The translations under genes and the position numbers were made by a program. The notes under the pieces were generated by a model that searched no databases, was not told where the DNA came from, and was given only the letters and a program-made list of their open reading frames with translations. DNA of 64,000 nucleotides from Raillietiella orientalis. Taxonomy: Eukaryota. Shown here piece by piece: positions 1 through 41,852 of this stretch. The stretch is taken from positions 1-64,000 of the forward strand of contig JAYWIR010000004.1 in assembly GCA_036172245.1 (NCBI GenBank). The letters are read 5' to 3'. Within the stretch, counting starts at the first letter, position 1; each line of letters starts with the position of its first letter.

Positions 1-1234
1 CCGGCAGCGTTCGGCAACATCGAGAACGCGTTCGACAACGACGCTGCACTCTTTAATAATCGCGCTACCCTGCTCTTTCTTCTTCTGTTGGTAGGCGATT
101 TTCTTTTCCATCCTCCTCTCCTTCTTTGATTTTTTGGCAGTTGCAACTTGCCACCCAGTCTCCTGGCCGGCTCCCTCAACTTTTACGGCGTTGGTCGTCG
201 GTGTCTCGGGTGCTTCATGGGTCTGGGGCGCAAGTGGCACAGCCTTCGCCGCAGCTTTCGCCGCCAGCCTTTTCCGCAGAAGCCGGGCGCGTTTTTTAAG
301 GTTTTTCTTGGAAACCACCCGCACTGCTGCTATTGGGCACACCTCCTTCGTGTGGCCCATTGTGCGGCATGCTAGGCACTGCACATTGGGACACCTCCTT
401 TAGAGGTGGCCCGAAGAATTGCAGAAGCCACAGTATTTCGGCTTCCCCACATGCCAGAGGTCGACGGTTTCGCCTTCGACCACCAGTTTGTGGGGAAGAG
501 TGCAGCCCTTCCGAACGTTCACGCGCGCAGCAGTGAGGCCGTGTTGCAGCCTTGTGTAGTTTTCGAAAGGTCTAACTTTCGTCCACTCCGCGTGGACCGT
601 TCCAAACTGTTCCAAAGCGGCGCGAACCTGTTGTTTGCGCATTCGCGCGGTCACGCCTAACAGGTGGACCACCATGATGCGGTCCGCCGTAGTGGGGAGG
701 AGCCTCCGCGTCCCCATCATAACGGGGGTTTTAAGCAGTCGTTGGGCCAGCTCTTCATGTTTGCAGGTGACCTCAACGTACTGACCCCCGCTGCGGATGG
801 TCATAGCGCTAAGCTCCTCCTCTTTCACATCGAGAGCGCGCATGCCCTTCGAGAAGGCGCGCGCGCTCTCTAAAGAATATAAATTGCCTACCTTGTAGAA
901 CAATGAGGGGTTGTACCCCTAATCCACATAGGCCGACAATTCCGCCGCGGCTGCAGGCGATGGCGCCGACACAACGGCGCTCCACGCCCGCGCTGCAGCG
1001 GGGACCGATTCTGTGGGGGCGGACGCCCCCACCTTCATCGCCTCTGGGGGCGACGTTGCCGTCGCCCCCTGGCTCTCCATCGCCTCTGGGGGCGGCGTTG
1101 CCGCTGCCCCCTTGCCATTCCTGGTGGTCGCGTCAGGCATCGCTGTTTGATCGACCACCGAACCACACGACGCTTGCACTGGGGCAGACTTCCTGGCACG
1201 AGCAGCACCGAGAAAACACGTCCACCCTGGAGCG
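1..1234 (-). mobile_element. L1/Tx1-like non-LTR retrotransposon, family A: 5' end and ORF1 (runs off the window; disrupted)
   Basis: ORF 400..903 ...LPHKLVVEGETVDLWHVGKPKYCGFCNSSGHL (zinc knuckle); closely similar to ORF1 copies at 12957-14575 and 16737-18257; 42-nt tandem duplication near 1036-1110. Confidence 0.85.
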
Positions 1235-3368
1235 CACAAGGCGTTCGACTGTGTTGACCAGGATATCCTCTTGGAGCTCCTGGGTCGCATGAGCTTCTTA
1301 CCCTCCTTGATTAACTACCTGCGCTCTTGCTGGCGGAACAGGATAATCTCGATTACTTTCAGTGGACAAAAGTTGTATGGCGTGCCGGTGCGGCGGGAAA
1401 TAAGGCAGGGCGACAGCTTCAGCCCCCTGCTTTTTGGCACCTACGCTGATTTGGTGCTGAGAGCGTACAGGGTGACTTTGACCCCCTTGCCGTGCTCGTG
1501 CCCCGGCACGCCAGCCGTAGCAGCGTATGCCGACGATCTTCTGCCCCTCTTACCTATGTCCACTCCGGCGAAGGCGGTCGGAGATTTCTTTGATTTGCTT
1601 AGCCGTGAAGCCGGATTACAGGTTAACAGGGCGAAGTCGTCAGTGCTGCAAGTTGGAGCGACGTAGGCAGGGAAGCAGTAATGGGTCCGTCTGGGTATCC
1701 CCACGGTGAGGTGCATCAAGTACCTCGGTGTGCCGTTGGGGGACTTCTCCCTTGCGGGAGCGTGGTCCAGCTGCCTCCAAAAAGTCGAGACGGTGATCGG
1801 CCCGTTTCTGGAAAGGCAGTTTCACTTGCCGGAACGCGCCGCGGTTTGGAACGCCTTCGCGGCCCCCATCATTCGCCCCTTGCTTTTTGTTGCCCCTCCC
1901 CCGTTGAATCCTAAAAGCAGAACAAGGACCTCCTCCGCAAATCTCTTTGGGGCAAGAAAAGGCCTTAACTCCCTTGGAAGGACTTGTGCGCTCCGCACAA
2001 GTCCTTCCAAGATTGTCGGCCTCCGGGACGGCGGTCTCAGCATCCTGACGCTGGAGCGCGTGGAAATCTAGCTGCGATGGCGGACCCTCGCCATCGCAGC
2101 AAAGATGTAGAACACCGCTTGGTGCATTCAACACCGCCTCCTGGCCAGGCGTGTGTCCCGCTGCGAAGAACTCGCAGCGTTTCTTCTGTGCCCTGTCCGG
2201 AAGATTCGAAGATGCGGTCTACTGCTCGGCCGCATGGCAACCCTGGCAAAGGAGAACGACTGGATGGTTTGTGGCCCTGCCAACTCCTCCGCTTGGCTTA
2301 AAGAGACTGCTGGCACCTGGGCCAAGCAGAACCAGAGGTGCGAAGACCGGATGAACTGCCTGCGAGTCTGCTCTTACGCCCGCCGAACTCTTCGTGAAAT
2401 TCTTGAATTTCCACCGTATTGCAAGTGGGTGGATGGCACACCCCTTGTTACGGCGATGCCCTTCCTCTAAAGGGCGCTTTACGAAAGCCGGAAGCCAAGG
2501 TGGCAAGTCTGCTGACGTATCGGAGGCAGAGTGAAGATGATGAGCGGCTGGACCATGGGAGAGTTGACAGATGCAACGACCCTAGTCTCCAGCCGCGTGG
2601 ATTAAGAATATGGGGCGAGCTGCTGGGCATACGATTGGATGAACTGAAGAGGCCCCCGGTTCTACTTAAATCCAGGATTCTTTCCCTGAAGTGGCAAGAA
2701 TCAACGTTTCTGTTGCTGCCTTGGGGTCTACCCTGCAACGCGCGCCGCTTCCACTGGACGCGGGGAAGAGTAAATCCTGCGTGTGCCAGGTGTGGGAGAA
2801 GGAGTCGTTCCCCCACCTCTTAGTTGAATGCCCTGCCGTCCAGATTCTTTGGGATCGTTTTAAAAGGGCCCTCCGGATACCGAATGGTGGCATTGTTGGA
2901 TGTGTCTTCAGTCTTGTCTTCGTGCGAGGCGCCCTCAATCCAACCGCAGCCCTGGCAGCACTTTGCTGCATTCGTGGTATTGTGGCGGCCTGGACTGATG
3001 CCGAAGATGAAGACTGCATCGTGAAAGACGTTATCGAGCATGACTTTGGCTTCCTGCAGAGAGCTACCCGATGGCCCCATCTAGGAAAACTGAAAATGGA
3101 ATTAGAAGGCATCCTGCAATGGATGGGCGCTCCCAGTAGTTTTCCGTGATCCTTTCCCGGACCTCCAAACTTTTTTTGTGGTTTGTTTTTCTCTTTAATT
3201 GTGTTTTTGTTTTCTCCCCCATACCCTTCCTCTGCCGAGGAGAGCCAAACCGGGCTGCGTCTCGGTGTCCCGGCAGTTCCGGTATTGCGTGGCCGTGAGT
3301 GGGGCTTTGTACCACGTTCTGTATTGACTGTTGAAATGTGTTTAATAAACGTCCCGGCGTATCCGGGT
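1235..3368 (+). mobile_element. Family B ORF2 3' half (RT to C-terminal Cys motif) plus 3' UTR; pseudogenised
   Basis: HKAFDCVDQ, IRQGDSFSPLLF, AYADD, KYLG, C..C..ESFPHLLVEC across frameshifted ORFs; ends in the terminal hairpin 3344-3368; resembles ORF2 at 23622-27221. Confidence 0.9.
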
Positions 3369-5970
3369 GGCATCGCCGAAACCTGGAGGAAGTTGATGGA
3401 GGGGACACTGGTCACAGAACTCTCGGACTGGGCGTTTTATTTTGCCCCATTCAGCGAGAGTCTGCAGTTCGCAAGTACGGAAGTATGCGCGCAGATGTTC
3501 GCGCGCTCCTGCGATTCACAACCAGTCTCCCGGCTGGCGCCACGCTTCGGAAGGTGGACGTCGGTCGCGCGGATGGATGTTGATCACTAGCCGAGCGTGA
3601 TCGGACAGATCCGACTCAATTGCACCTCGAGTTCCCACCCGCGTACACAAGTGGTTATGAAGGAACACGTGGTCGATTCTGCTTCTCAACACGGCTTCAT
3701 CGGCCAACAAGTTGCGTATGTGCATAGCCGCACACAACTCGTTGACCAATTGTGCTCTTATGTGGGGCGCTCCCGAGAGCAGTCGGACGTTGAAGTCTCC
3801 CGCTATCAGATGCGACCGCCGCACGCCTGCTTCGGCCAGCCAGTCTCGCCGCAGGGCTTCGAAGAACGCAGTGCGTTCTGCGTGCCTGTGGCTGGTGCAG
3901 GGCGCGTACACGTTCGTCACTACGAGGTCGATCGATTCGGATTACTCGAGGAGAAATTGTCCGACTCGACCTTCCTCGTCGAAGTGTGCACTGCGCACCG
4001 CATTGGCGACAGCCCGCTTCAGCAGGAAGGCCACTCCGCGGGAGTGGTCTCCTCCTCTACGATAAAGTAGCCTCCCCACTGTGAGCCTCTCGATTTTCTG
4101 GACGTCCTCTGCTCTGAGGGCATGCACCTCTTGGAGAAGTGCCAGATCGAAAGGTCGCAGGGTGTCGGCCACGCTACGCCTTCTGCTCCCGTTGCGCAGC
4201 TTGTTGACATTCCAACAGTCTATACTCAGTTGCCGGCAAGAGGCGATTCCACCCATCATGCAAATGATGGTGGTAGCGTGTGCATTGCCGCCTCCAGTTC
4301 GGGAGGCGGCTGGTCGTTGTCCATCTGCGGTGGTGGCGTTCCGGCCACGACCGGAACGTCTACAGACGGACTCAGGTCGATAGGAAGGACCGACCGGATT
4401 CTGTCGATGGAGGGATTCCGCGACCTCGCGGACATCGCCTCCTCGCTATCCGAGCGCATCTCCTCCACTTCAGCCTGAGGGGGAGCGACGCGCATAGGGT
4501 TGCGCGACTTCCGGCCCGCCTTCCTCTTCGGAAGGGCGACGGTGGGAGGGTTTCCGGCTTCTGCCTCGGACCCGGAAGTTTCCGGGCACTTAACTTCCGC
4601 CGGACGTCTGACGGCCTTCTTTGCAACCTTAGGCGGCTGCATTAAGGTGGCCGCGAGTTCCTCCGCCGCCTTCGCGAAGTTTTTCTCCTCGCTGCTGCTC
4701 GCGTGTTTATCGCAGGATTCCTGCGGCGGTTCCGCGGCGTTCGCGACGGTTGCGGGAGTCGTTTTCGCCGATCGACGCTCGATCGATTGAACGCGCTCGA
4801 TTGTAACGGTGCATTTCTTTAAAGACTCGCGCGGCGAAATTTTTGGTTTGCCGACCGCGGGTTTCTTGGGAACGCTCGCATTCTGATTTGTATTATTATT
4901 TTTTTTTGGAGTTTTTGTTTTTTTTTGCGTTTCGTTTGTTTTTTGTTCGACACGACTTTCCAGTTTTCCTCGTCGGCAGTTGGCTAAGAAGTCTCCTTTT
5001 GAGGCTCCTGCTCCTTGTGGACGACTTCTTCTTAGGTCGGCTGTTGGTCGCTCGTTTTTTTGTTTTCTGCCTTCTTCCCTCATTTGTCGAAGGGTCTGAA
5101 GGCGTCGTCGCGGCGTTTTTCGGGCACACAGCAATAGTGTGGCCCTTCGCGCCGCAGGTTGGGCATGTAGCATCCGGGCATCTCTTTTTAAGATGCCCGA
5201 ATGTGTTGCACAGCCCACAGTATTTTTCCTTCTCCACTTACCAGAGGTCGACGAGCTCGTCGTTGACCTCCAGCTTGTGGGGAAGTTCTTTGTTTTCGCG
5301 GAGAGTTACGCGTGCGGCCACTCGCCCACTGAATGCGCCTCGATAAGTAAAGGCGTTGGGCTTCGACCACATCGCGTATATCTCCGCGAACTTGTTGATT
5401 TCAGTGCGGATGGCTTCATCGGTCATCCGCATCGTTGTACCAGTGAGGTGGATCACCATAGAGTGTTTCACCGAGTGTGGGAAAAGATTTGCCCTTCGAA
5501 CGTAACGGGCGTGCATAGCAGTTTGTGTGTGAGCGCTGCATCTCTGCAGATCAGCTCCGCGAACTGCCCGCCGCTCCGAATCGAGAAGCAAAGAATCTCC
5601 TCGTCAGAAATTCCCATCCTACGTATGGCGTTTCTAAATCTCCGCATTGTAAGCGGAGAATATAAGTTTCCTACCTTGTAAAGGAGGGCAAGGTTGTAGC
5701 CCTCCTTTATGTAGGCCTGCACTTCGGCGGCCACGTCCGGCGGAGTCGCCGCGGCCACCTTGTTCCACGCCCTCGCCGGGGTGGCGGGGGCTTTTTTTGT
5801 GGTGGGGCATGATCCCACCTCTATAGGTTGGGTAGACGTTGGCCTCACGTCTCCCGTCGCAGCTACTGCGGCGTCTTCAGGCATTTCTGCCTTTCAACGG
5901 CCGCACTTCCAATCCACCCAACAACTAGTCTTGGCTTCGCTCACGGGAGCTGACCAAAAACGCGTGGGGC
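3369..5970 (-). mobile_element. Family E 5' half: ORF1 (5884-4256, frameshifted) and APE endonuclease (4259-3369)
   Basis: CGLCNTFGHLKKRC-CPTCGAKGHTIAVC knuckles; WNVNKL, LQEVH, NVYAP, GDFN, IDH, SDH endonuclease motifs. Confidence 0.9.
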
Positions 5971-8780
5971 ACCGATGCAGGTTTGCTGCATTTTGCGGGA
6001 TTCGTACTCCTCTCTTTACGCCAATAGACCACCAGAGCGACCTTTTGCGCAGCGTCTGCAGCCAGAAGGTGCTTTCGCGTTAATGGAGGACGAACGTCAC
6101 ACCTTCCAAGTGGAATTTACGATGGGGGAGATTGTTTCCGCCATCAAGAATCAAAAAAATAAGGAAGCATCAGAGAGAAACGGCCTGCTAGCTGAAGTTT
6201 ATTAACACTTTGCGGCAGAGTTGGCTCCCATGGTGCTCAATTTACGTTTGCTGATCCGTTAACGCGGCGATGCCCCCAACTCGTTCCAAGCAGCTATAGT
6301 ACGTCTCCTTTCTAAAGGAGGAGACTTGCGCAACGTTGGCAACTGGCGTCCTATCACTGTGGTCAATGTGGACGCGAAGATGCTTACCAAACTCTGGGTT
6401 TAGCGTTTGGGACGGGTAGCGGAATCCGTGGTCAGTCCGGAACAGACATACGCTGTTCCCGGACGAACCATGGAGGCCAACCTGTTCCTCTCCAGCACCT
6501 TTTGGCAGTTCGAACAGCGCAAGGCTAAGCTAGGTCTGGAGAGTCCTGGACTCTTCAATGACCGGGGGAAGGGAAGCCGAGGGAATGATGCGGCGCCCGA
6601 AGCCCTTGCGGTCGCAGTCGATTTGCGTAAAGCTTTCGAATGCGTCGACCAGGTGCTGCTCCTGGAGCTCCTGGAACGCTTGGGATTTCCGACCGTCTTC
6701 CTGGCGTACCTGCGCTCTTGCTGGCGCTTCGCGGTAATTACCATTAATTTCAGCGGCCGGCACGTGTACGGCGTGCCGGTTCGTCGCGACATCCAGCAGG
6801 GTGACAGCTGTGCCCTCTGCTCTTCAGCATCTACCTTGAGTTGGTGCTGAGAGCACACAGGGAGACTTTGGCAACCCTGCCGAGCTCATGTCTCGACACG
6901 CCTGCCATGTCAGGCTATGCCGACGATTTTCTGCATCTGCTTCCCGAATCCACCCCGGCATCGGCGCTTGAAGATTCCTTTGAGTTGCTGAACCGTGGGA
7001 CGGGCTTCGACGTAAACAGGGCATAGTCGTCAATTGTTTTTCCAAAATCGTCGCAAGCAGGACGGTCGGAATGGATCCTCTTGGGGATCCCCACGAACAG
7101 GTACATCAAGAACCTTGGCGTTCCGTTGGGGGACTTCTGCTCTGCAGAAGCCTTGTCCAAACGTTTACAAAAGGTGGAGCTGGCGATCGGCCCGTTCCGG
7201 GACGGCAAGTTTCACTTGCAGGAACGGGCCACTGTATGGAACGCTTTCGCGGCCCCCCTTCTTCGCTTTCTACTTTTTGTGTGCCCTACCCCGTGTCAAA
7301 TTAGGACACGGACTAGGGGCCTTATACGGAAAGCCCTCTGGGGTAACCGGAGGCCCCGCGTCCGGCTCAAAGACTTGTGCGCTCCACACAGGGACGGTGG
7401 ACTTGGTCTCCTGACGTTCAAGCGCATGAAGCGACAGCTCCACTTCAGGAAACTTGCCCTTGTGGCAAAGTTTTGCACAGCACCCTGGTGTGCACCCGCA
7501 AGACTCTTTGCTCACAGCGCAACCGGCTGCTTCGAATTGACTTTAATCCTGGTAGCCAATCAACACAGCCTGAAACATTGTGGTTATCAGTTGCGGGATT
7601 TGGTTGCCCTGATGAGAGACAACCCTTGGATCTCCTGCATCCCAGCGGACTGGACTACCATGCATCAGGAGTCCGTTTCCGCATGGGCGAAGATCAATGG
7701 CACCAGCGATGAGGACTTCTCCTGCCTCCCCAGAGGGAGGCACGCTGGTCAGCCACTCCAGGAGATCGTTTCCAACCCACGGAAACTTCTGTGGTCTTTC
7801 TTCACCCACCTTGCCCCAGTGCTGCTCTCCCTCAGGAAAGTTCGGGACAGCCGCCAGAACGCATCGTGGGAAGTGTCCTGCTTCATCGGAGGCAGAAAAA
7901 AATCACTGAAGGCGTGGACGCCGAAGGAGCTTGCGGACGCTACTACCTCGAGTGTCCCGTCGAACACAATTGTACGTTGGGGCGTGCTGCTCGGCATACC
8001 TCCGGAGCAGGTGAAGTGGCCTTCAGCGTCATGGGACAACGGCACCCTTCCCCTGCATTGGCAGGAGACGGCGTTGCTTCTGCTCCACTGGGGACTTTGA
8101 AGCAGAGCACGCCTGTCTCGCTGGACATCGGGGAATGTGGATGCTAGTTGTGCAGAGTGTGGGGAAAGGGAGACCTTCCCTCACTTGATTCTGGAGTTTG
8201 TTGCGCTCCGCGAAATGTGGGACAGACTCTCGTCGATCCTCGACATTCCGGAGGGTGACCCGAAAAACTTATTCCGATGCCTCCTGACGCGAGACGGCTT
8301 GCCAGCATCCGGGAGCGTAGCAGTGCTTTGCTGCATACGCGGTATCCTGAAGTAGTGGACCGCGTCTAGGAGAGGAAGGACCAGCCGGAATGCGATCCAT
8401 CGGGCAGCCATCTCCCTGGAGAAAGCGTGCCGTTGGCGCCCACTTCGAAAACATTTGCCGGCGCTTGTTCGCATCCCAAACCGGATGCAAAGGCCTGCTC
8501 ACGGCGCACCGTGCTCCCCTTCCTCCCACCCACTCCTTAAGAAACATTGCCTTCCATACGGTTTTCTATTTGTTGTTTTATTTCAATTTATCAGCCACTG
8601 CGCCAATGTGAAGGTCCTTTGCGGCCTACGGGTCGGTAAGGACAAGTACCACTGAACGTTTTTGAACTTCTAGACATCCTGAAGAGGAAATAAGATTTTT
8701 GGTGAAAAAATTCAGACTTTGTTATGGAATTTTTTGAAATCTCAAAAAATTTAATAATAAAAGCCTCTGGTTACCCGGGT
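5970..8780 (+). mobile_element. Family F ORF2 from the post-endonuclease linker to the 3' end; pseudogenised
   Basis: YSSLYA, SPEQTYAVPGR, DLRKAFECVDQ, GYADD, CAECGERETFPHL; degenerate terminal hairpin 8756-8780. Confidence 0.88.
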
Positions 8781-10660
8781 TAAATACCCCGTCGGGTTTC
8801 GTTGAGACTTCGCGTTGCTTTGCGGGGAGCATTGCCTGGCTGCCTACTTTCGATCGGCCGGCACACGCTTTTCAACGAGTTGTCCTCCTCTCGGTGATCG
8901 GAACGGCATCCATTTCAGAGTCCGACCGACGCATGTTCGATCGGATTTCGGCCTTCCTCCAAGTAGTGAAAGGTTTTGCTGGATTGACGGCTGTCCTGTT
9001 GTTATTTTCCGTCACCAGTGCATCGCCTTTGGTGACGGCTACTTTCCCTGCGCGCGCGTTTTCAGCGTGCTCATGCGCAGTTGCACCAGGGACCTTTGCT
9101 GAAGTCTTCTTTACTTAATTACGGTTCTTCACTTCACGTGGCGCCGTAAATGAAGATTGTCCTCCATTGCCATCTTTGAAGCCATCCGCGTCTTTGGACG
9201 GGAGCACTTCCGATGGCTCCGACACGCTCGTCATAGGCGCTGCCTTCGTAAGGGCTTTCAATCCCTTCGTTGGCATGGCATCAGCGCCAGTCGAGAGCTT
9301 GCCCTCCGACTGCGACGGCGTGAGAGGTTTCTCCGCTTGCGCAGTGTTGGACCGCGAAGCGGATTTTAGTTTTCAGACTTTCAAAGTCGACACGGCAAAA
9401 CCCTTCTTACCCGATTTGCGCTTCTCAGCCACTGCAGGAGGTGAAGGAATGGATCTGACGGTACTGGAAGTGTCGATACCGCCGTTGTCCATTGGCGACC
9501 CCGCAGGCTGCTCGAACTCCGAGAGAGCCGAGCGTGCTTGGGAAGGACCGCTATGTCGCCCAGGAGCCCTTACCATTGCCCCGAATTATCCGCAAACTTT
9601 TTTTTGCGGCTCCCCTGTCGCGAGGGGGTGCGCGCAGGGCTTCGCGTGCGAGGCTTCCTGCTGCTTTGGGGCGACATTCCGCCTCGCGTTTTTACGGAAT
9701 TTCTGCCGTGGGTTCTCCGGGTTTTGCAAGGATTTTTTCTTCCCTTCCGCGCTTTGTTTCTTAAGATGGAGCTTTGCGGCTGCCTTTTTTCGCAAAAGAT
9801 CCAAGCAATTTTTCAATTGGTGGACGAAAAGATTGCAATAACGGCATTTTCTGGAGGGGCATTTATCCAAACAAGGCCCCTCCTTCCCGCATTGCTCGCA
9901 CGTTCTTACTTTGCCCACGAACCACAGGTGAACGACCATGTCTTTCACTTGTAGTTTGGTGGGCAGCAGACGGCGGTCCGGCATTGTAAGCCGGACTCCA
10001 GCGACTCCGCTGTGTATGGACGGGAAGTTCTTGAGGTTGCTACGCACCCTCCACAGCGCATGGACCGTGGCGGATTTTGCCAACGCGTTCCGAATATCAA
10101 TGTCGGAGATTTCCGACTCAATGTCGAAAATCTCCGCCACGAATGAGTCGTCCATGGCAGCCGGGAAGACCTTCTGGCCACGGATCGACAACGGGGTGCG
10201 CAGCAAGCGTTGCACAAGTGCAGCGTCTTTGCAACGCACCTTGAAATAGCCCATGTCTTTTACGGGCATAATGGCGAGAAGGTCCTCCTCCCGCACGCCA
10301 ACACGGGTCAGTTCATCGTTGAACTGATTCCCGTCGCGCGCAGAAAGAAAACCACTCACCTTATATCGGAGAGCAGGTCTATAGCCTTGGGCTACGTATG
10401 CCCGCAACTCCGACTCGTCGAGAGGTTTCCCTTTGACGGCTGCTGTGGCAGCAACGTCAGCAAAACTCCTCTCCATTGGCGAGGCAGACGAAGAGGAGGC
10501 GGCCGTCGGTTCCGCGATTGCAGATCCGGACGCTATACCTCCAATTTTAGTAGCTTCGGATTAGGTTGACATTTTCGTCAAAATGCACGACACGAGGATG
10601 GAGCGATTAAAAGCCCGGAGACGAGAGCGAAGAGAAAAATGTTGTCACTCGGTTGAAGTT
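8781..10660 (-). mobile_element. Family D 5' end and ORF1, 3'-truncated
   Basis: ORF 9586..10476 with LPTKLQVKDMVVHLWFVGKVRTCEQC.. and CRYCNLFVHQLKNC, homologous to the other ORF1s. Confidence 0.8.
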
Positions 10661-10664
10661 TTTC

Positions 10665-12861
10665 ACCATGTCACGCCGGGGCGTTTATTAAAAATAAACC
10701 GGTCACAGACGATGCCTTCAACCAAAGAAACGACAAGGAGCAAAAAGAAGTTACCGGCACACAGGAATGGCTAACAAACCGCTTCCAACAACACTGATTG
10801 AGTAGAGGGATAACAAACAATAATCAAAATCTGGAGATAGGGGTAACGGGTCTTTGGTGAAGCTCCGTACTCACGGGGATTCAAATAGAGAGCACCTAAA
10901 ATGTTTCGCAGCCTAATAGGGCGGTAGTGTGAAGAAAAAAAAAAACATCTGAAGAGGGCGAGGGGAAAGGTTTACTGGGTGCTCTGTTGGGTAGCGTCTG
11001 TAAAACGTTGGCGTATACTAGCGAGATCTCTTTTCGTATCCTCGGTCAATTGAGGCCATCTGGCGGCTCCTACCATATAGAAAGATGCTTTGCCGATCAC
11101 CACTTGGTGCTGCTTGTTGATTATCAGCGCCTGGCGGACGGAAACTATCGCGCGTATGCAACCGATCATTGCAACACTTGCGATTGTAGACAGCCCGCTC
11201 GGCGTGAAGAATCGTCGCAGCAAGTCTCTTGCGGTGTCCACGGGATGCATTAGTGCTGTTGCCAGCCTGCGCCACGGTCCTTGTAGGACACCGCAGTCCA
11301 GAAGTAGTTGCGGAATCGACTCCGTCGATCCGGACCGAACGCAGTACGCAGACGCAAGTCCCCCGGAGTCACGATGCCAACGCTCCTTGCACTGAAAACT
11401 CCAGTGAACGAAAAGCATCACGGCTTGTTTCCAAGCAAGGGGGAGCAGCGATCTGTCAATACACTGTGGAGGGACTACAAGTTCTTCGGGGGTGACAGCA
11501 AGTTCTTCTGCTCACCGGAGGAGTCCCTTTGCAGTAACACGAGGAGTGGCGGCGTCCGCCAACTCATCCGCCTTCCAGGCGCCAAGGAGTTTGGTTTTTC
11601 CCGCTAACGTGCAAGAAACCTCCCACCTTGGCGGTTGGCAACTGTCGTTTCTTGCCCTGAGGGAAGACAGCGCTTCGGCAAGAGGCGCGGCAGCCAGGGT
11701 AGAAAACCTCACCTCCTACTGCAGTACTTCTTCCAAGGATCGTGGAAAAAATTGGCGCAAGGAACAAATATCTTCAAAGCGTATTCCCTGGTGCGCCGCC
11801 CAGGATTCAACAGACTCCTGCCGCCAAGCTTCAAAATTCATTGGGCGGCAGGACATCCACGAGTGAACTTCCAGAAGTGCGGTCAACTGCCGCAGTGGAA
11901 ACCCGAAACCCCGCTTTTTGTATTGGGTGCCCGGCAAAAGCGAGAGAAATCCTCCACTGCCGGCGCATCCCCGCAGGAGAATGCATGCTCGCACACACAG
12001 TGGGGATATCCATAGCTGAGCACACAGTGCCAGCAGTCGGAACTGCACCTGCAGTCCGATTAGCTCCATTGTCAGGATTCCCAAACCAGCATACCGACGC
12101 GGAGCTAAGAAATCTTTAAGGCGGATCCTGGATCTCGCCGGACCCCAGAAACCGTTCCTGAGCAGGCGTTTAGCCCGCTGTTTCGCCGCATAGGGGGGGT
12201 CCAAAACGAAATACAGGGGACTGAGGAGGGGGACCACAAAGCTGTTTTAAATAGTCGCCCGTTCTTGCAAGGTAAACTTGTCGTTAATAAACGGGCTGAT
12301 GGCCAACTCTGCTTTCCGAAGACAGTCCGTCCACGCTTCGGCTGAGACGAAAGCGCCCAACGGAACGCCAAGGTACTTAAAGTACCCGCCCGTTAGGATC
12401 CCCAGGCGGATCAAGTCGGACTGCTCCTCCCACGACGCACCCACACGAACGCCCGCGCTCTTCTGTCTGTTCACACTCACGCCCGCTCCCCGACGAATCA
12501 CTTCGAAGAAAACCTCGACACTGGACGCCGGGGTGGACATAAGGAGCAGAAGAAGCAGGTGATCAACGAAGGCGGTCACGGCAGGCGTTCCCGGGCAAGA
12601 GCTTGGCGAGTGAGACAGCGTCAGCCTGTATGCTCTAAGCAGCAACTCAAAGAAGATGCTGAACAGCAACGGGCTTAAGCTGTCGCCCTGTCCGATGCTC
12701 TTACGCACGGAAATACCATACACGCGGCAGTCGCTGAAAGTGATGCAGGTTAGCGCGTGGCGAAAGCACGCGCACAAATACACCAGGAGTTGCGCCGGGA
12801 ACCCAAGGCGTTCCATAATCTCCAAAAGCAGCTCCTGGTTTACGCAGTAGAACGCCTTGTG
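10665..12861 (-). mobile_element. Family C ORF2 3' half plus 3' UTR; pseudogenised
   Basis: HKAFYCVNQ, QGDSLSPLLF, KYLGVPLG, CVRSG..ESIPQLLLDC; terminal hairpin 10665-10689. Confidence 0.88.
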
Positions 12862-14758
12862 CGCTCTAGGGTGCACGTGTTTTCTCAGTGCTCCTCTTGT
12901 CAGGAAGTCTCCCCCAGTGCAAGCGTCGAGAGGTTCGGTGGTCGATCAGGCAGCGATGCCTGACGCGACCACCAGGAATGGCCAGGGGGCAGCGCCAACG
13001 CCGCCCCCAGAGGCGATGGTGGTGGGGGCATCCGCCCCCACAGAATCGGTCCCCGCTGCAGCGCGGGCGTGTAGCGCCGTTGTGTCGGCGCCATCGCCTG
13101 CAGCCGCGGCGGAATTGTCGGCCTATGTGGAGGAGGGGTACAACCCCTCATTGTTCTACAAGATAGGCAATTTATATTCTTTAGAGAGCGCGTGCGCCTT
13201 CTTGAAGGGCATGCGCGCTCTCGATGTGAAAGAGGAGGAGCTTAGCGCTACGACCATCCGCAGCGGGGGTCAGGACGTTGAGGTCATCTGCAAACAAGCA
13301 GAGCTGGCCCAACGACTGCTTAAAACCTACGTTGTGATGGGGACGAGCAGGCTCCTCCCCACTACGGCGGACCGCAGCATGGTGGTCAACCTGTTAGGCG
13401 TGACCGCGCGAATGCGCAAAGAACAGGTTCCCGCCGCTTTAGAACAGTTTAAAACGGTCCACGCGCAGTGGAAGAAAGTTAGTCCTTTCGAGGACTACAC
13501 GGGGCTGCAACACGGCCTCACTGCTGCGCGCGTGACCGTTAGGGAGAACTGCACACTTCCCCACAAACTGGTGGTCGAAGGCGAAACCGTCGACCTCTGG
13601 TTTGTGGGGAAGCCGAAAAAATGTGACTTCTGCAATACGTCGGGCCACCTCAAAAAGAGGTGTCCCAATGTGCAGTGTTAAGCATGCGGCACAATGGGCC
13701 ACACGGAGGATGTGTGCCCAAAAGCAGCAGTGCGGGTGGTTTCCAAGAGAAACCTTAAAAAACGCGCCGGGCTTCTGCAGAAAAGGCTGGCGGAGAAAGC
13801 TGCAGCGAAGGCTGTGCCACCGGCGCCCAAGAACCAGGAAGCACCCAAGACCCCGAAGACCAACGCCGAAAATGTTGAGGGAGCCGGCCAGGAGACTGGG
13901 TGGCAAGTGGCAACGGCCAAAAAATCAGAAAAGGAGAGGAGGATGGAAAAGAAAATCGCCTATTAACAGAAGAAGAAAGAGCAGGGTAGCGCGATAATTG
14001 AAGAGTGCAGCGTCGTTGTGGAACGCGTTCTCGATGTTGCCGAACGCTGCCGGAAAGAACTTGCCGCTACCGACGACCTCCCCTCTGTTGACACAGTCAA
14101 CAGCGAGGGGAGCGAGCCGGCGGCGGCGTCCGTCATCGACACCACCATCGATGACGTAGCCTTCGCGCGAGCCGCGAAGGAGCTGGCAGCCTCGTTGCAG
14201 CCAGAACCCACCAAGGCTGGCAAGAAGGCCGTAAGGCGTCCGGCCTCCCCTCAGGAGTCCCCCACTTCCGACTCCGAGGTGGAGGCCGGAAGCGCAGCCT
14301 CCGTTTCCACGGCACCGCGCAAGAAGGCTGGACGTAAGTCCACAAAGCCAAGGAAGCTCGTCTCCCCCGTCGAAGGGGAAGAGATGGCTTCCGCAAGCGA
14401 GAGTGCCATGAGCGTGGGAAACTCTCGGGACACATCGCCCGAGAGACTCCCACGCACGGACACGGAGGGGATGGAGGGGGTGGAGGCCGAACAGGTGCCT
14501 CAGGTGCCTGAGAAGGCCGAAACCCCCATGGACATCCCGCCAGCCTCGCAAGAGGAGGGCTTTTCCACACCTTAAACTTCCCAGCAGTAATGCCGGGAAT
14601 CTCCTCCCGCCGTCGTCTGCGCATCGCCGTTTGGAACGTGAACGGCATGACAGACGCCGGCAGGAGACGAGACATGGCCGCCCTTCTGGAGTCCTACGAC
14701 CTTGCGCTGCTGCAGGAGATCCACGTGATCTCTGCAGAACAAGCGCAAGAGATTTCTC
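12862..14758 (+). mobile_element. Family A 5' end, ORF1 (about 12957-14575, internal stops) and start of endonuclease (14590-14758)
   Basis: CDFCNTSGHLKKRC knuckle; WNVNGM..LQEIH; TAATG at 14588-14592. Confidence 0.9.
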
Positions 14759-16365
14759 ACCCGGTCACGCCGGGGCGTTTATTCCATATAACATAACCAA
14801 AAAAAAAGCAATTATACAAAATAAACCAGTTGGGAACCAAACTCCCAACCGACGACTGAACATGAATGAAGAGAATATTGCTGGCACGCAGGCAAGAGTA
14901 ACAGTTTTGTGAACGGTGTGAAGGGGCGGGAAACACAAAGAAACCAAAATAAAATAAAAACAATGAATAAGGAGGACGGGATAAGGGTGTTTGGGATCGC
15001 TCTGGAAGACACGGGGATAAAAGCATGGGCACCGGAAATTTTACCGAGCGAACGGGGACGGGGTATGGGTGGGCGAGAGGTAGCAGGGGTCACCGGATTA
15101 CGTCGTTCTCAAAGGTGTGTAAACCGGCGATGTATGCCGGTGATGTCCTCATTCACCTTGTCACGAAGATGAGACCACCTTGAAGCCTTCTCCATGAATT
15201 GAGCTGCAAGCAGGTGAGCCTCCCTTCGCTGCGATGAAAACTCCAGGGCGTAGCGGGCCTTCACGATGGCGCGAACGCAACACATGGTTGCGACAATCGC
15301 GGCAACTGAAAGCCCATTTCTGCTGAAGAAGCGCCGCAGCACATCAATGGCAGTGCCTCCTTGTGGCATGATGGCCGAAGTGAACCTTCGCCACAGTTTT
15401 CAGAGGTCACCGCAGTCCAACAAAAGGTGCGGAAAAGACTCGATCTCTCCGCACCTTAAACAGTTTGGCAAAGCAGCTTCCCCGGAAACGATGCTTCGCT
15501 GCCTATTACAGTGAAATGCACAATGTAAAAAGAGCAGCACATCTTGTTTCCACTCAAGGGGGAACACAGAGCTGTCCAAACAAACGAAGGGAACCACTAT
15601 CTCTCAGGGGGGCACACTTAAATGTTCGCTCCACCGAAGCATTCCCTATGCCCGATTCCGAGGTGTGGCGGCTTGCACCAGCTCCTTTGTCGTCCAGCTG
15701 CCGAGGAGCACACAGACTCCCGCTATTTTGCAGGAGAACTCCCATTCCGCCGGTAGGCAACCGTCGTTGCTTGCCCTGAGGGCAGACCGCGCTACGGCGA
15801 GTGGTGTGGCGGCCAGACGATCCGACAACTTCTTGTCCTGCATGACTTCGTCCATTTGATGACTGAGGAGAAGTCGCAGGCGTCGAAGTTCTTCCGGGCG
15901 CGTTCCTTCGGAAGCTGCCCACGATGAAAAAGATTCCTGCCGCCATGCATTAATGTTCATGGGGCGGCAGGAGATCCAGCTTTGGGCTTCCAGCAGTGAG
16001 GACAGCTGCCTCAGCGGGAAGCCAAACCCTATTCTGGTGTGCCGAAAGTGGGGTAGCAACGAAAGCAGTCCCTCGCTTCCCGTGCAGCGCCTCAGTATAA
16101 GGCGTGCGGGTAAGCACCACGGCGTACACCACAGCTTGGCACAGAGCCGCAGCATGCGAAACTGCAACTGCAGTTCGATGCTGTTTAAGTCGAGGATGCC
16201 CAAGCCTGCATCCTGACGCGGCGCCACCAAGTCTTTAAGTCTAACACGGGATCTTGCAGCGCCCCACAACGCTTTGCGTAGAAGGCGCTGCGCCCAGACT
16301 TCGACTTCCTGGGGGGGTGGACAAACAAAAAACAGGGGGCGGAGGAGGGGGGCCTTGTATATTGA
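14759..16365 (-). mobile_element. Family C-like ORF2 C-terminus plus 3' UTR
   Basis: RVRLKDLVAPRQDAGLGIL, CLRCGEIESFPHLLLDC; terminal hairpin 14759-14783. Confidence 0.85.
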
Positions 16366-16568
16366 TCCAGATTATTTTATTTTGGTTTCTTTGTGTTTCG
16401 CGCCCCCCCACACCGTTCAAGAAACTGTTACTCTGGCCTGCGTTCCAGCAATATTCTCTTCATTCTTGTTCAGTCGTCGGTTGGGAGTTTGGTTCCCAAC
16501 TGGTTTATTTTGTATAATTGCTTTTTTTGGTTATGTTATATGGAATAAACGCCCCGGCGTGACCGGGT
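16366..16568 (+). mobile_element. Short 3' UTR fragment, inverted copy of about 14759-14955
   Basis: Near-identical reverse complement by eye; terminal hairpin 16544-16568. Confidence 0.8.
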
Positions 16569-18257
16569 GAGAAATCTCCCGGGCTTGATCTGCGGAGATC
16601 ACGTGGATCTCCTGCAGCAGCACCAGGTCGAAGGATGCCAGGGTGGCGGCCACGTCACGCCTCTTGCCTTCGTCGCTTAGCCCGTTCACGTTCCAACAGG
16701 CGATCAGAAGACGACGGCGAGAGGCGATTCCCGGCATTATGGCTGGGAAAGTGGCGTCGCGGCACCTGCCGCGGGGCAGGTGTAGGACAGGTCCATCGGT
16801 AAGAGGACGGAGGCCTCTTCAGGCGCCTGGGGAACCTGTTCGGCCTCCACCCCCTCCATCCCCTCCGTGTCCCTGCGTGGGAGTCTCTCGGGCGACGGGT
16901 CCCGAGAGTTTCCCACGCTCATGGCACCCTCTCTTTCGGAAGCCATCTCTTCCCCTTAGACGGGGGAGACGAGCTTCCTTGGCTTTGTATACTTACGTCC
17001 AGCCTTCTTGCGCGGTGCCGTGGAAACGGAGGCTGCGCTTCCGGCCTCCACCTCGGGGTCGGAAGTGGGGGACTCCTGAGGGGAGGCCGGACGCCTTATG
17101 GCCCTCTTGCCAGCCTTGGAGGGTTCTGGCTGCAACGAGGCTGCCAGCTCCTCCGCGGCTCGCGCGAAGGCTACGCCATCGATGCTGGTGTCGTTGACGG
17201 ACGCCGCCGCCGGCTCGCTCCCCTCGCTGTTGACTGTGTCAACAGAGAGGAGGTCGTCGGTAGCGGCGAGTTGTTTCCGGGAGCGTTCGGCAACATCGAG
17301 AACGCGTTCGACAACGACGCTGCACTCTTTAATTATCGCGCTACCCTGCTCTTTCTTCTTCTGTTGGTAGGCGATTTTCTTTTCCATTTCCCTCTCCTTC
17401 TCTGATTTTTTGGCCGTTACCACTTGCTACTCAGTCTCCTGGCCGGCTCCCTCAACTTTTTCGGCGTTGGTCGCCGGGGTCTCGGGTGCGGCCTGGGTCT
17501 TGGGCGCGGGTCGCACAGCCTTCGCGGCAGCTTTCTCCGCCAGTCTTTTCTGCAGAAGCCGGGCGCGTTTTCTAAGGTTTCTCTTGGAAACCACCCCCAC
17601 TGCTGCTCTTGGGCACACCTTCCTCGTGTGGCCCATTGTGCCGCATACTTGGCACTGCACATTGGGACACCTCTTTTTGAGGTGGCCCGACGTATTGCAG
17701 AAGCCACAGTATTTCGGCTTCCCCATATACCAGAGATCGACGGTTTCGCCTTCGACCACCAGTTTGTGGGGAAGAGTGCAGCCCTCCTGAACGGTCACGC
17801 GCGCAGCAGTGAGGCCGTGTTGCAGCCTCGTGTATTCCTCGAAGGGACTAACTTTCGTCCACTGCACGTGGACCGTTCCAAACTGTTCCAAAGTGACGCG
17901 AACCTGTTCTTTGCGCATTCGCGCGGTCACCCCTAACAGGTGGACCACCATGCTGCGGTCCGCCGTAGTGTGGAGAAGCCTGCGCGTACCCATCACAACG
18001 GGGGTTTTAAGCAGTCGTTGGGCCAGCTTTGCATGTTTGCAGACGACCTCAACGTACTGACCCCCGCTGCGGATGGCCATAGCGCTGAGCTCCTCCTCTT
18101 TCACATCGAGAGCGCGCATGCCCTTCGAGAAGGCGCGCGTGCTCTCTAAGGAATATAAATTGCCTACCTTGTAGAACAATGACGGGTTGTAGCCCTCCTC
18201 CACATAGGCCGACAATTCCGCCGCGCCTGCAGGCGATGGCGCCGACACAACGGCGCT
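16569..18257 (-). mobile_element. Family A ORF1 (5'-truncated) and start of endonuclease (16737-16569)
   Basis: ORF 17427..18248 with two CCHC knuckles; WNVNGL..LQEIH; TAATG overlap 16735-16739. Confidence 0.9.
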
Positions 18258-18796
18258 TTACGTCCGCGCTGCAGTGGGGACGTTAAAGTCCCCGGCGATG
18301 AGGTGCGCCCTTCGCATGTCTGCTTCGGCCAGCCAATCTCGCCGCAGGCCTTCGAAGAACGCAGTGCGTTCCCCGCGCCTGTGGCTCGTGCCGGGCGCGT
18401 ACACGTTGGTCACGACGAGGTCGATCACGTCGGTCCACTTGGCAACAAGCTGCCCGATTTGACCTTCCCCGTCGAAGTGCACGTCGCGCAGCGCATTAAC
18501 GACGGCTGGCTTCAGCATGAAAGCCACACCGCGGGTGCGGTCTCTCCCGTTTTGGTATACGAGCCGCCCGCCTGCGATCCGTTCGATTTCCTGGGCCTCC
18601 CCTGCGTGGAGCACGTGCGTCTCCTGCAGAAGCGCCAGGTCGAAGTCCCGCAGGCTGGCGGCCGCTTCTCTCCTCTTGCCGTCGTCGCGCAACCCGTTGA
18701 CGTTCCAACAGATTACGCGCAGTCGCCGGCAGGAGGAGAGTCCACGCGTTGGTGTGTTTATTGTGCTTGCTTACCGTCCTCCGCCTGCTGTTTGCC
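18258..18796 (-). mobile_element. Family E-like ORF1 tail and endonuclease fragment; close duplicate of about 27835-28352
   Basis: LQETH, NVYAP, AGDFN; high nucleotide similarity to the 27.8-28.3 kb segment. Confidence 0.85.
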
Positions 18797-21780: not shown

Positions 21781-21871
21781 CGAGTGGACGTGTGTTTCCT
21801 TCGCTCCCGAGTGAGTCGACAGGAAGCGGTTTTTTGTTGTGTTGTTTAGTGTGGAACATCGTTGGTGTCCG

Positions 21872-23625
21872 ATGGTAGCGATGCCTGAGGACACCACGAT
21901 GGAGGTAGGTGTGGGGGAGGCTTGCCCACCTTCACAGCCTACAGAATCAGGGGCGTCCGCCCCGGAATCGCCCTCGCCGCTCAAGGCGAGGAGCTGGAGC
22001 GCCATGGTGGCCGCGCCGAGCGCGGAAACCATGGCCGAGATGGCGGCCTACCGGGCAGCTGGGTACAAGCCCAGCTTGGTTTACCCGGTAGGCAATCTCT
22101 TTGACGGGCGAACTGCACGCGCTTTTTCGAAAGCGCTGCAGAACGCCAACGTGTTAGAAAAGGACCTTGACGGTCTATCCGTGCTAAGCGGGGGTCAGCG
22201 CGTTGAGGGTGTCTGCAAGGACATCACCTTGGCGCAAAGCTTGATAACCACCCCGCTGAACGTGGACGGACGCAAGATCCTACCAGTCACGATGGACCGC
22301 TCCGTAGTGGTCCATCTGACAGGGATCACCAGACGCATGACGCGGTCTGCGGTTGGTGATCAGTTAAGAAAGCACGGGGATGTTCACGCGCTTTGGCCAA
22401 AGGCCACAATCTTCGATGGCTACGATAGCCTTTTCGGAGGGCAGGCCGCCGCGCGCGTGACGGTGAACGAGAGTGGGCTTCCCCACAAACTAGAGGTCAA
22501 TGGCGAAGTCGTAGACCTCTGGTACGTGGGGAAACCCTGCTTTTGTGGCTACTGCAATGCAGTAGGACACTTGCGCAAGCGGTGCCCGAACATTGTGTGC
22601 CACTTATGCGGGGAGAAGGGCCACGTACGCCGCGTATGCCCTAAACGCCCCACTCCGGTGCCGCCTGCTGCAAAAAAAGCACAGGCAAAACGCAATAAAC
22701 TGGTCGAAAGACCAAAAAGAGATACTGGCCGGCAGCAGCCGCTAGCCCCTGTTCCTCCCACACAGGCGTCGGAAGAAAAACCCTCCGAAGACGCGGGAGT
22801 CCAAGACGGCTGGCAGCTGGTCAAGGCCAGGAAGGAGAAAAAGGTGTACCCCGCGGAACCCGCGAAAGCGGTAAAAAAGATAGCCGGCAAGGCGAAAAAA
22901 CCTGGGCCGCGCTCTAAGACCATGCGGGAATGTACGGTAGCACTGGAGCGCATAGCCGTTTCCGAGATTGCCACCCGGGGCGACGAGCCTTCCCTCGCCG
23001 TTTCCGCCGCGCCCGAGGTTTGCGACGACGAACCCTCTGTTTACACAGAGGGTGAGCCGCGCGACGCGCCGGTCGACACTGCGGACGCCGCGTTCGCAAA
23101 GGCGGCGGAGGAGCTCGCGGCCACGCTGGCGGAGCGTGAGAACCCCTCACGCAAGGCCGTGCGAAGGCCGGCTCCCGCGAAAAGGCCCCCACAGGTGAGT
23201 CGGACCTGGGGGCCGGAAGTGCATCCTCCTCCTCGGAGGCACCCCCCAGGAAGTCGGGACGCAAGTCCCAGAAACCCAGGAGGCGCCTCCCCTCCACCAG
23301 CGAGGAGGAGAAGCACGAAGGTAGCGGTAGCGTGGGAATCCCGGAGGGGGAACTCCCACGCTCGGAAGCCGTCGAGCCGGCCACCCCCATGGAGGAGGGT
23401 GAGCAGGGGGGCGAAGCCCTCCCTGCAGTCGCCGAGCCTGAACAGCCCGCCCCCATGGAGGAGGGCCAACAGGTAGGCGCGACCCCACCTAAGGGTGACC
23501 CCTTCGACGCGCCGTTACCCATGGAGGAGGGGGACCAGGTGCACGCAGCGCCTGACCCTCCTCCTCCACCTAGCGTCCCGCCCCAACAGGTGGCGGACGC
23601 CGCATCGCCATCTTCCCAGAAATAA
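21872..23625 (+). pseudogene. ORF1 nucleic-acid-binding protein with two CCHC zinc knuckles; apparent frameshift in the low-complexity C-terminal part near 23.2 kb
   Basis: CGYCNAVGHLRKRC-CHLCGEKGHVRRVC; the acidic/Pro-rich tail continues in another frame (ORF 23332..23625) to the ORF2 junction. Confidence 0.8.
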
Positions 23626-27221: not shown

Positions 27222-27421
27222 TCCCTTCCCTGCCCTCCAACTTCTTTTTGTTTGTTTCGTTTTATTTTACTTTTTGTCTCATCCCCATCCCCCTTCGCTG
27301 TCGGGGAGTGCCACGCCGGGCTGCGTCCCGGTGTTCCGACAGGTCCTGTGTTTACGGCCGTGGTGGGGCCTTGTACCACGCATGTGAAGTTTATCAATAA
27401 ACGCCCCGGGCGTACCCGGGT

Positions 27422-41830: not shown

Positions 41831-41852
41831 TGATAATAAATAATAACTGAAT

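Follow-up and report, generated by a model that had tools for sequence, protein, structure and literature searches.

The 64,000-nt window analysed here (Raillietiella orientalis, assembly GCA_036172245.1, contig JAYWIR010000004.1, positions 1–64,000, forward strand) raises the question of how two copies of one retrotransposon family came to have their 5′ ends at the same base of the HKAFD codons in the reverse transcriptase (RT) sequences of two diverged LINE lineages. The first 40 kb of the window consists of nested, GC-rich APE-type LINEs belonging to several diverged lineages, and the surrounding animal genome is AT-rich. The nearest database proteins are 25–30% identical and unnamed or generic, carrying RVT_1, Exo_endo_phos and zf-RVT domains.

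A reference point within this nest is an intact, full-length, 5651-nt element, FL (21776–27426, plus strand), which has an open ORF1 and an ORF2 frame that is open over 1215 codons. The ORF2 frame matches Exo_endo_phos (43.1 bits, cutoff 24.5, residues 32–237) and RVT_1 (80.2 bits, residues 574–750), and on these predicted domains FL classifies as an APE-type non-LTR retrotransposon (LINE) with an N-terminal AP-endonuclease-like domain followed by the reverse transcriptase. Two CX2CX4HX4C motifs are readable in ORF1 of FL and in ORF1 of family A, the family whose 5′ ends are in question, with a borderline Pfam zf-CCHC score (20.7 bits against a cutoff of 20.8). FL lacks LTRs and its sole flanking repeat is a 10-bp direct repeat, so that the apparent CCHC knuckles, the absence of LTRs and the short target-site duplication also point to a LINE.

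At the left joint, read on the plus strand, the sequence GAGCG ends at 1234 and CACAAGGCGTTC follows from 1235; at the mirror joint, GAACGCCTTGTG occupies 12850–12861 and CGCTC follows from 12862. In each case the RT homology starts with the His codon of HKAFD (1235 and 12861), bearing out, with coordinates about 1 base off, the original prediction that the 5′ end of family A abuts antisense RT at both joints. Global alignment of 1–2100 with the reverse complement of 12001–14100 gave 1101 identities among 1192 aligned bases on the A side (92.4%, with one 42-nt indel; 1–1234 against 14053–12862) and 413 among 657 on the RT side (62.9%; 1235–1891). The final 100 nt of A before the joint share 89 bases, the initial 17 nt of the RT share 16 and the following 100 nt share 54, so the step in identity is sharp and is located 17 nt within the RT homology rather than at its edge. 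The peptides encoded past the joint are HKAFDCVDQDILLELLGRMSF in the left host and HKAFYCVNQELLLEIMERLGF in the mirror host, both as first quoted, and the description of near-identical A ends with RT sides that diverge within a few codons agrees with these values. Similar identity on both sides of the joint, which had been named as evidence against separate insertions, is not what the alignment across it gave (92.4% versus 62.9%).

The two joints share the same base, orientation and reading register in two ORF2 copies of approximately 3.6 kb. By our own estimate, random insertion into either strand of a 5.6-kb element would produce this coincidence in the order of 1 in 10^4 cases, and chance is implausible as an explanation. 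Counting both strands, the window has just four exact copies of the 9-mer CACAAGGCG: one at each joint, one at the HKAFD site that is uninterrupted in FL, and one elsewhere. An 8-nt match, CGCACAAG, lies 760 nt further into the left host and was left unused; microhomology by itself therefore does not select the HKAFD site.

Family A, treated in the original prediction as an element with a 'host', is in fact the 5′ part of another LINE, comprising a 5′UTR, an ORF1 with CCHC knuckles and the start of the endonuclease. A1 (1–1234, minus strand) contains the 5′UTR (1141–1234) and ORF1, carries two private stop codons and leaves the window at its left end; tblastn with the ORF1 of A2 maps to 1245–376, and the ATG is 94 nt from the 5′ end. 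In A2 (12862–14757, plus strand), the 5′UTR and ORF1 (start codon ATG, 12956) are followed by ~50 codons from the beginning of the endonuclease, where the 3′ end of a G-lineage element interrupts it. A3 (16570–18281, minus strand) is 5′-truncated at ORF1 codon ~66, thus has no 5′ joint, and forms a 1.9-kb inverted repeat with A2, the arms of which have the G-lineage joint in common. The ORF1 of A is only 32–50% identical to the ORF1s adjoining other RTs (47.7% to that of FL), which places A outside the lineages of both hosts. Divergence among the three copies is star-like, with 34, 38 and 41 private changes in A1, A2 and A3 respectively.

The left host, B (1235–3373, plus strand), is the 3′ half of the ORF2 of an FL-lineage LINE, from the HKAFD His codon to the 3′ hairpin end. 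It aligns by tblastn to P0001 aa 522–1151, ends in a hairpin at 3345–3369 plus GCAT, and is 86.5% identical to FL over 660 nt. The mirror host, C (10660–12861, minus strand), is likewise an ORF2 3′ half and runs from HKAFY to the 3′ hairpin end (hairpin 10688–10664) of a LINE of a different lineage; its tblastn alignment covers aa 522–1146 at 43.6%, and its nearest relative is the RT copy J5RT (73.6%). B and C are 62.7% identical. The HKAFD site of FL (25323) is unoccupied, FL being uninterrupted at the same 17-mer, and since FL is the nearest relative of B, the joint is not ancestral to B and C. Because the hosts differ and no stop codon is common to A1 and A2, the two joints arose separately. 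These comparisons support the A joints being independent events at one site of the catalytic RT motif in two diverged host lineages, as had been proposed; the accompanying claim of site specificity is so far unproven. All visible A-lineage 5′ ends, 2/2 and thus a very small sample, lie antisense at HKAFD, in hosts that are 62.7% alike.

The 17 nt common to both joints (1235–1251, plus strand; 16/17) may be either a target-derived leader or a copy of the target. In C, these first 17 nt are 16/17 like B and FL, whereas the next 103 nt are the least like B and FL (56–62/103) as against 77/103 identical to J5RT. The 17-mer ends at an initiator-like CAGT (A(+1) at 1250, minus strand), 27 nt upstream of a DPE-like GGACGTGT, and identity between A1 and A2 stops at the CA position. 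GGACGTGT is present in A1, FL and x2 and matches 8/8 positions of the consensus as quoted in PMC1636488. A CA lies exactly 27 nt upstream of this 8-mer in A1 (16 flanking nt and 11 element nt) and in FL (17 and 10), and two other lineages with a DPE-like motif have no CA at this spacing. The match to the Drosophila initiator consensus is modest by our own count (6/8 in A1, 5/8 in A2 and 5/8 in FL).

We read the 17-nt stretch as a probable target-derived leader carried by the A RNA. The original prediction had named a breakpoint just inside the RT as a sign against site-specific insertion, and such a breakpoint does exist, 17 nt in; the stretch keeps the reading frame of C, and site specificity is therefore not removed by it. 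No homology was found between the A 5′UTR and sense ORF2 beyond the common 13-mer. A search of the whole window for a ribozyme at the A 5′ end yielded no Rfam match at gathering score, and only noise at E≤10 in 12700–13100. A CGC nick site 9–11 nt upstream of the joints was considered and dropped when a better 5′UTR alignment shifted the boundaries of two neighbouring elements, H1 and H2.

The insertion of FL provides a precedent within the window that can be checked on both sides. FL lies antisense within H2, a minus-strand element whose 3′ part (18793–21775) spans ORF2 from the GFG codons on, as far as the 3′ hairpin end, and whose 5′ part (27427–29995, right boundary approximate) has the 5′UTR, ORF1 and endonuclease up to the GFG codons. 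The codon phase of H2 is continuous across FL, resuming from 27427–27436, and FL is flanked by exact copies of the 10-mer CGCCGAAACC at 21766–21775 and 27427–27436 (plus strand). FL is thus a proven antisense LINE-into-LINE insertion within the ORF2 of H2, with an exact 10-bp duplication. The FL-lineage site is also written GGTTTCGGCG.

Just three copies of CGCCGAAACC occur in the window, the third lying directly behind the 3′ end of B (3374–3383, plus strand). There B cuts H1 at the GFG codons; H1 (3374–5975, minus strand, right boundary approximate to ~15 nt) comprises the 5′UTR, ORF1 and endonuclease of an H-lineage LINE, and its own 5′ end is head to head with the ORF2 of the RT copy J3RT. 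The visible FL-lineage 3′ ends are therefore both at CGCCGAAACC in two different hosts (2/2, again a very small sample). The 3′ joint of B being within H1, B inserted there in an event of its own, and the A1 5′ end beside it would most simply be a later event, a step that is disputed by the strongest of the rival explanations below. For both the A and the FL lineages, independent copies thus appear at the same target in the same orientation. The joints, their independence, and antisense insertion of LINE into LINE with duplication at a reused site (FL and B) are what the sequence shows.

Not all joints of the nest are simple insertions, since H2 is without a target duplication, and tandem joints between a 3′ end and a 5′ end are found at 10664 and 40367. 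Three RT copies (J3RT, J5RT and T) share a third recurrent breakpoint, which falls near aa 297 of P0001 in ORF2; of these copies, T lies in the same orientation directly behind the 3′ end of another element, and a stall or truncation hot spot fits this pattern as well as targeting does. The joint between H2 and J5RT and a look-alike at ~37010 are similar on both sides and were counted as one event. Positions 1235–8500 and 25323–32600 are collinear at ~70%. A block duplication of these intervals was rejected, as J3RT is nearest to the RT of H2 (83.8%) and not to J5RT (68.7%), and the reading frames of FL are still open.

The explanation to which we incline, at somewhat better than even confidence, is site-specific insertion of A into the HKAFD codons of the ORF2 of other LINEs. 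Two full-length A copies would each have entered an older LINE antisense, one in the FL lineage (B) and one in another (C), both at the H-K-A-F-D codons, splitting RT motif A. The A-encoded endonuclease would nick at or beside the HKAFD sequence and begin target-primed reverse transcription. The A RNA is predicted to start at the initiator-like CAGT within the antisense F-D-C codons of the target, 27 nt upstream of the DPE-like GGACGTGT of the element, and would thus bear a 16–17-nt target-derived leader. The complement of this leader on the cDNA could then anneal to the HKAFD site of the next host, setting the 5′ joint in register and with single-base precision, and A would presumably create a target duplication of its own. 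This is the best-supported reading and is unproven: the 3′ end of A1 lies beyond the left window edge, A2 is cut at 14757 with its 3′ end lost in rearrangement, and the 3′ junction and duplication of A accordingly lie outside the window. With two A joints observed, and on neither a 3′ junction, a target duplication or the upstream half of B or C in view, nested insertion of A is a likely reading and not a demonstrated one.

A broader and distinctly more tentative extension regards the nest as a guild of mutually parasitic LINEs, in which each lineage would home antisense into one conserved ORF2 codon block of another. On this conjecture the FL lineage would use the GFG codons between endonuclease and RT, and A would use those for HKAFD in RT motif A; the initiator of the target together with the DPE of the element would restrict expression to copies that are correctly sited and oriented, and the RNA leader would guide the next insertion by homology. 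If this were true, a victim would be unable to alter the motif without losing its reverse transcriptase, mirroring homing introns and rDNA-specific elements.

The rival that survives best, although we judge it unlikely, is twin priming with two RNAs, or template switching, in which an A RNA and a B or C RNA are copied at a single insertion site and the RT-like leader at the 3′ end of the A cDNA anneals to HKAFD of the B or C cDNA and primes there, with no targeting by the endonuclease. The head-to-head layout, in which a complete 5′ end stands beside a 5′-truncated ORF2 as in 5′ inversions, suits this explanation, and the FL-like 17 nt at the joint of C would fit a leader arriving with A. The irregular joints of the nest (H2 without a duplication, the tandem joints) and the recurrent truncation of RT near aa 297 are also in its favour. 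However, where both sides of such a joint are open to inspection, as they are solely in FL, the insertion is clean and has a 10-bp duplication; FL also shares the initiator–leader–DPE geometry, and an earlier true insertion at HKAFD would still be required for A to have gained its leader.

Recombination or gene conversion at the DNA level is improbable. One ancestral joint between A and RT would have been duplicated and its RT side then replaced, or its A sides homogenised, by an exchange ending within the motif, consistent with the breakpoint 17 nt inside the RT and with the evident DNA-level rearrangement of the locus (the 1.9-kb inverted repeat of A2 and A3, with the same G-lineage joint in both arms). 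B and C, at ~63% identity, are nevertheless too diverged for homologous exchange; their common stretch is just 17 nt, and an exchange stopping so near the A end, within 17 nt in ~2.1 kb of RT, would need a coincidence. The uninterrupted site in FL, nearest to B, indicates that the joint is not ancestral to B and C, and the star-like A1, A2 and A3 show no conversion tract.

Misjoining of repeats at a short common word during assembly has to be considered in 40 kb of nested repeats for which the one public run found gave just short, diverged contigs, yet it seems very improbable: the longest identical run over both joints is 17 nt, in our judgement not long enough for an assembler to be misled; A1 and A2 are 8% different and thus distinct copies that each need a flank; and the perfect FL duplication with its in-phase host frame indicates that the assembly is coherent here. 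Ordinary 5′ inversion by twin priming of one RNA, with A and the adjacent RT as parts of a single element, has the classic layout of an inverted 5′ part beside a direct 3′ part, and H1 with J3RT and H2 with J5RT could also be read in this way (endonuclease ending near aa 251, RT beginning near aa 297), but it is hardly credible and already contradicted, because two RTs of just 63% identity stand beside one and the same A (92.4%), the ORF1 of A is ~48% identical to that of FL while the RT of B is 86.5% identical to that of FL, the missing RT half of H2 lies on the far side of FL (making H2 a split full-length element with no inverted piece), and the A part starts from base 1 of its element and the RT part from mid-ORF2, which is not what a single element would give.

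Outside the window, searches of public data found no further copies of A, a point against site-specific insertion. In one public sequencing run, 11% of sampled words were present, and its contigs on 1–9000 were short (~230–500 nt among the pieces listed) and mostly <95% alike; none of the six listed loose contig ends, from a set with 105 more, fell at 1234/1235, which has no bearing either way on the joint. Exact-pattern scans with the A 5′-end 20-mer found seven loci in metagenome contigs and three in prokaryote genome contigs, and those with the joint 18-mer found ten loci in viral contigs, all of them chance matches, 18–31 nt long. A protein-guided scan of viral contigs with the ORF1 of A found no relative.

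L1 5′ inversion by twin priming has a similar layout, placing an inverted 5′ part head to head beside a direct, 5′-truncated 3′ part. Here, by contrast, the parts belong to separate lineages, and FL in H2, where both sides can be inspected, proves to be a nested insertion with a duplication.

Among site-specific elements there is a likeness to Tx1L, an APE-type LINE of Xenopus whose insertions occupy a fixed sequence of the transposon Tx1D, and the endonucleases of such elements are reported to read ~10 bp around the cut (PMC1919474). Both cases would involve an APE-type LINE and a specific short sequence inside another mobile element. In contrast to Tx1L, the target here would be the ORF2 coding sequence of another LINE at the catalytic RT motif, with antisense insertion, and the ORF2 site used appears to differ between several lineages of the one nest. 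The RNA of some R2 elements keeps upstream 28S sequence, with a postulated role similar to that proposed for the 16–17-nt HKAFD leader (PMC3774820); R2 differs in its restriction-like endonuclease, co-transcription with rRNA and ribozyme release, whereas no Rfam ribozyme was found here and the leader would derive from a polymerase II initiator in the target. The Drosophila LINEs jockey, Doc, F, G and I have internal promoters in which an initiator is followed by a downstream element at about +29 to +36 (PMC1636488), and A1, FL and x2 resemble them in carrying GGACGTGT (8/8), with the CA 27 nt upstream in A1 and FL. Those elements start at their own first base, whereas the predicted start here lies 16–17 nt outside the boundary set by the FL duplication, in the target.

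To our knowledge, the targets of site-specific LINEs comprise rRNA genes, small RNA genes, telomeric and simple repeats, and one DNA transposon. In the openly searchable literature, we found none described as having a catalytic motif in the coding sequence of other LINEs for its target. The joints described here point to retrotransposon homing into a conserved motif of rivals. If confirmed genome-wide, this would represent direct interference between retrotransposon lineages and a promoter completed by its target site, would offer a natural explanation of dense LINE nests in an otherwise AT-rich genome, and would supply endonucleases with new ~10-bp specificities that may be of interest for targeted insertion.

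The GC-rich part of the window (~53–63% GC in 1–40 kb, compared with 32–39% from 52 kb on) is a nest of LINEs. Its complete copy, FL, has an open ORF1 with two CCHC knuckles, an ORF2 frame open for 1215 codons (Exo_endo_phos, 43.1 bits; RVT_1, 80.2 bits) and a 3'UTR that terminates in a conserved hairpin, AATAAAyGyCCCGG...CCGGGTG, plus ~4 nt, without poly(A); 11 hairpin 3' ends of this type are present in the window. The AT-rich part contains exons of a USP30-like deubiquitinase (55694–56644, minus strand), for which the best named matches come from bivalves, an annelid and cephalopods at ~50% identity, indicating an animal source, probably a lophotrochozoan.

Family A comprises a 94-nt 5'UTR, an ORF1 that has CCHC knuckles, and the opening ~50 endonuclease codons (...RIAVWNVNG...LQEIHV), and is thus the 5' part of a LINE, with an ORF1 only 32–50% identical to the others in the window. 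The 3' end of copy A1 lies beyond the window edge, whilst copy A2 is cut at 14757 by the 3' end of a G-lineage element, followed by an inverted repeat with copy A3; for neither copy does the window contain a target duplication or the upstream half of B or C. This repeat (13049–14957 and 16372–18281; 1.9 kb, 90% identical, 1.4-kb spacer) has a G-lineage 3' end in both arms, joined to one and the same codon of the endonuclease (14758 and 16569); either inverted duplication at the DNA level or a further case of site reuse could account for it. Adjoining A1 and A2 on the opposite strand are B (1235–3373) and C (12861–~10660) respectively, each an ORF2 3' half that starts at the HKAFD His codon and finishes with a 3' hairpin. 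HKAFD falls within the RVT_1 match and is motif A of LINE RTs, with the catalytic Asp just upstream in ...AVD-L. Head-to-tail joints between a C-type 3' end and an x-type 5'UTR occur at two loci, 10660–10690 and 40343–40372, with 77% identity between them over the joint region, suggesting either that one lineage forms tandem arrays or that an end-to-end joint has been reused.

On the plus strand, the A1 joint reads ...CACCCTGGAGCG up to 1234 and CACAAGGCGTTCGAC... from 1235; in the mirror joint of A2, GAACGCCTTGTG at 12850–12861 is followed by CGCTCTAGGG from 12862. Alignment of 1–2100 with the reverse complement of 12001–14100 confirmed the A–RT junction shared by two host families that was the core of the original prediction: the A sides share 1101 of the 1192 bases aligned (92.4%; a single indel, of 42 nt), compared with 413 of 657 (62.9%) on the RT side (1235–1891). 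At fine scale, identity is 89/100 in the last 100 nt of the A side, and on the RT side 16/17 over the first 17 nt and then 54/100 over the next 100 nt. The predicted step in identity is hence real, but is located 17 nt inside the RT homology rather than at the joint itself. The two-joint observation is real and beyond chance. The N-terminal part of the A1 ORF1 also contains a 42-nt tandem duplication (1033–1074, a PPEAM repeat), which A2 lacks.

The independence claimed for the two joints is borne out by relatedness on both sides. Over 660 nt from HKAFD, B is 86.5% identical to FL, whose site is uninterrupted (25323), and only 62.7% identical to C, for which the closest copy is another RT, J5RT (73.6%); B and C therefore cannot owe the joint to a shared ancestor. 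A1 and A2 have two stop codons each, none in common, and at 1005 compared sites A1, A2 and A3 carry 34, 38 and 41 private differences, so that the three copies descend separately from an intact source and not from one dead composite. Since the 3' end of B lies within a third element, H1, B reached H1 by its own insertion, and the A1 5' end beside it is most simply read as a later event.

A precedent is provided by FL itself. The 10-mer CGCCGAAACC occurs three times in 64 kb, and two of the copies (21766–21775 and 27427–27436) flank FL (21776–27426) exactly. On the opposite strand both belong to the ORF2 of the LINE H2, where they read GGT TTC GGC G with matching codon phase; the 5' part of this ORF2 (endonuclease, ...LPPGFG) lies to the right of FL and the 3' part (GFGGGLRNDRAY...) to the left. 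Judged by these flanks, FL is a clean, full-length antisense insertion into H2 with a 10-bp target duplication. The third copy (3374–3383) directly follows the 3' end of B in H1, so a single ORF2 site served two elements of one lineage, in two hosts. Antisense LINE-into-LINE insertion thus occurs in this nest, with one site used twice. FL carries GGATTCGGCG at the site targeted by its own lineage, one base off the target GGTTTCGGCG, and an unoccupied copy of the A target stretch at 25323–25339, 17/17 identical.

The first 17 nt of C match B and FL at 16/17 and four other RT copies at 11–13/17, whereas the next 103 nt are least like B (56/103) and FL (62/103) and most like J5RT (77/103). B/FL-like sequence has therefore been placed at the C joint, in register with the C frame. 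A breakpoint just inside the RT, which the original prediction had named among the findings that would refute it, is indeed present, 17 nt in, but because the register of the C frame is kept it does not do away with site specificity.

The A 5'UTR carries GGACGTGT (GCACGTGT in A2), as do FL and the further element x2. It matches at 8/8 positions the downstream promoter element consensus quoted in passages of PMC1636488 for the Drosophila LINEs Doc, F, G, I and jockey, at ~+29 to +36. A CA lies 27 nt upstream of this motif (ACA[C A]GTCG in A1, CCT[C A]GCCC in FL), in both cases outside the element, in antisense host codons; flank and element distances compensate (16+11 nt in A, 17+10 nt in FL), and the A1/A2 flank identity stops exactly at that CA. 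The initiator matches at only 5–6 of 8 positions, and two other lineages have the motif without the CA. The 13-mer CTTGTGCGCTCCA spans the A1 5' joint, with 12 of its bases in A2 (joints at 1239 and 12857), and recurs unchanged as the sense ORF2 codons for KDLCAP in J3RT, T and the H2 RT (B, 12/13), with sites at 1984, 7375 and 34228 (+) and 20185 (–). In local alignment it scores 26, where shuffles give 17.2 ± 2.5, and the likeness to the KDLCAP codons goes no further.

The best reading, which we favour by a modest degree, is that an A-lineage LINE inserted antisense, independently and with the help of homology, into the HKAFD codons of two other LINE lineages. We infer that A transcription would start at the initiator-like CA within the target, so that the A RNA would carry a 16–17-nt target-derived leader, the complement of which on the cDNA could pair with HKAFD in the next host and so set the position of the 5' joint. 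The main rival, which seems improbable, is two-RNA twin priming: reverse transcription of the A RNA and of another LINE RNA would take place at a single site, and the products would be joined via the leader homology. It would give the same picture at the A 5' joint and differs only in what adjoins the A 3' end. Nor does microhomology by itself explain the choice of site, as an 8-nt match deeper within B was left unused. Twin priming of one RNA is excluded by the pairing of a single A type with two highly dissimilar RTs.

Other joints in the nest call for caution. H2 has no target duplication, and directly beside its 3' end is an H2-like piece, 94% similar and truncated at the 5' end. A breakpoint near aa 297 of the ORF2 protein P0001 is found in J3RT and J5RT, beside the 5' ends of H1 and H2, and in T, there after the 3' end of another element in the same orientation; a truncation hot spot also fits this pattern. 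A joint near 37010 was rejected as an extra event because both of its sides are in common with the H2–J5RT joint. Several circovirus/CRESS-like Rep gene fragments lie across 41847–52157 of this animal-like genome (Viral_Rep at 46502–46885 and 51070–51432, RNA_helicase at 41847–42509), with an arginine-rich, capsid-like ORF (42527–43477, minus strand) that has no Pfam match. Just upstream of Rep-like copies, at 40343–41020 and ~44500–45142, LINE 5'UTR/ORF1 pieces come immediately after LINE 3' hairpin ends, and the viral-like fragments may have been dispersed along with pieces of LINEs.

A partial literature search found no report of a LINE targeting the ORF2 of other LINEs. The closest case is Tx1L, described in passages of PMC1919474 as an APE-type LINE inserting into a fixed sequence of another transposon, with endonucleases of Tx1L-like elements reported there to read ~10 bp, and part of PMC4640811 names 'transposons' among the targets of site-specific LINEs. 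For R2, PMC3774820 describes a postulated 5'-joint role for upstream 28S sequence kept on the RNA, the same as that proposed for the A leader. Family A is best read as an APE-type LINE that is site-specific, has targets of a new class and possibly has its promoter completed by the target.
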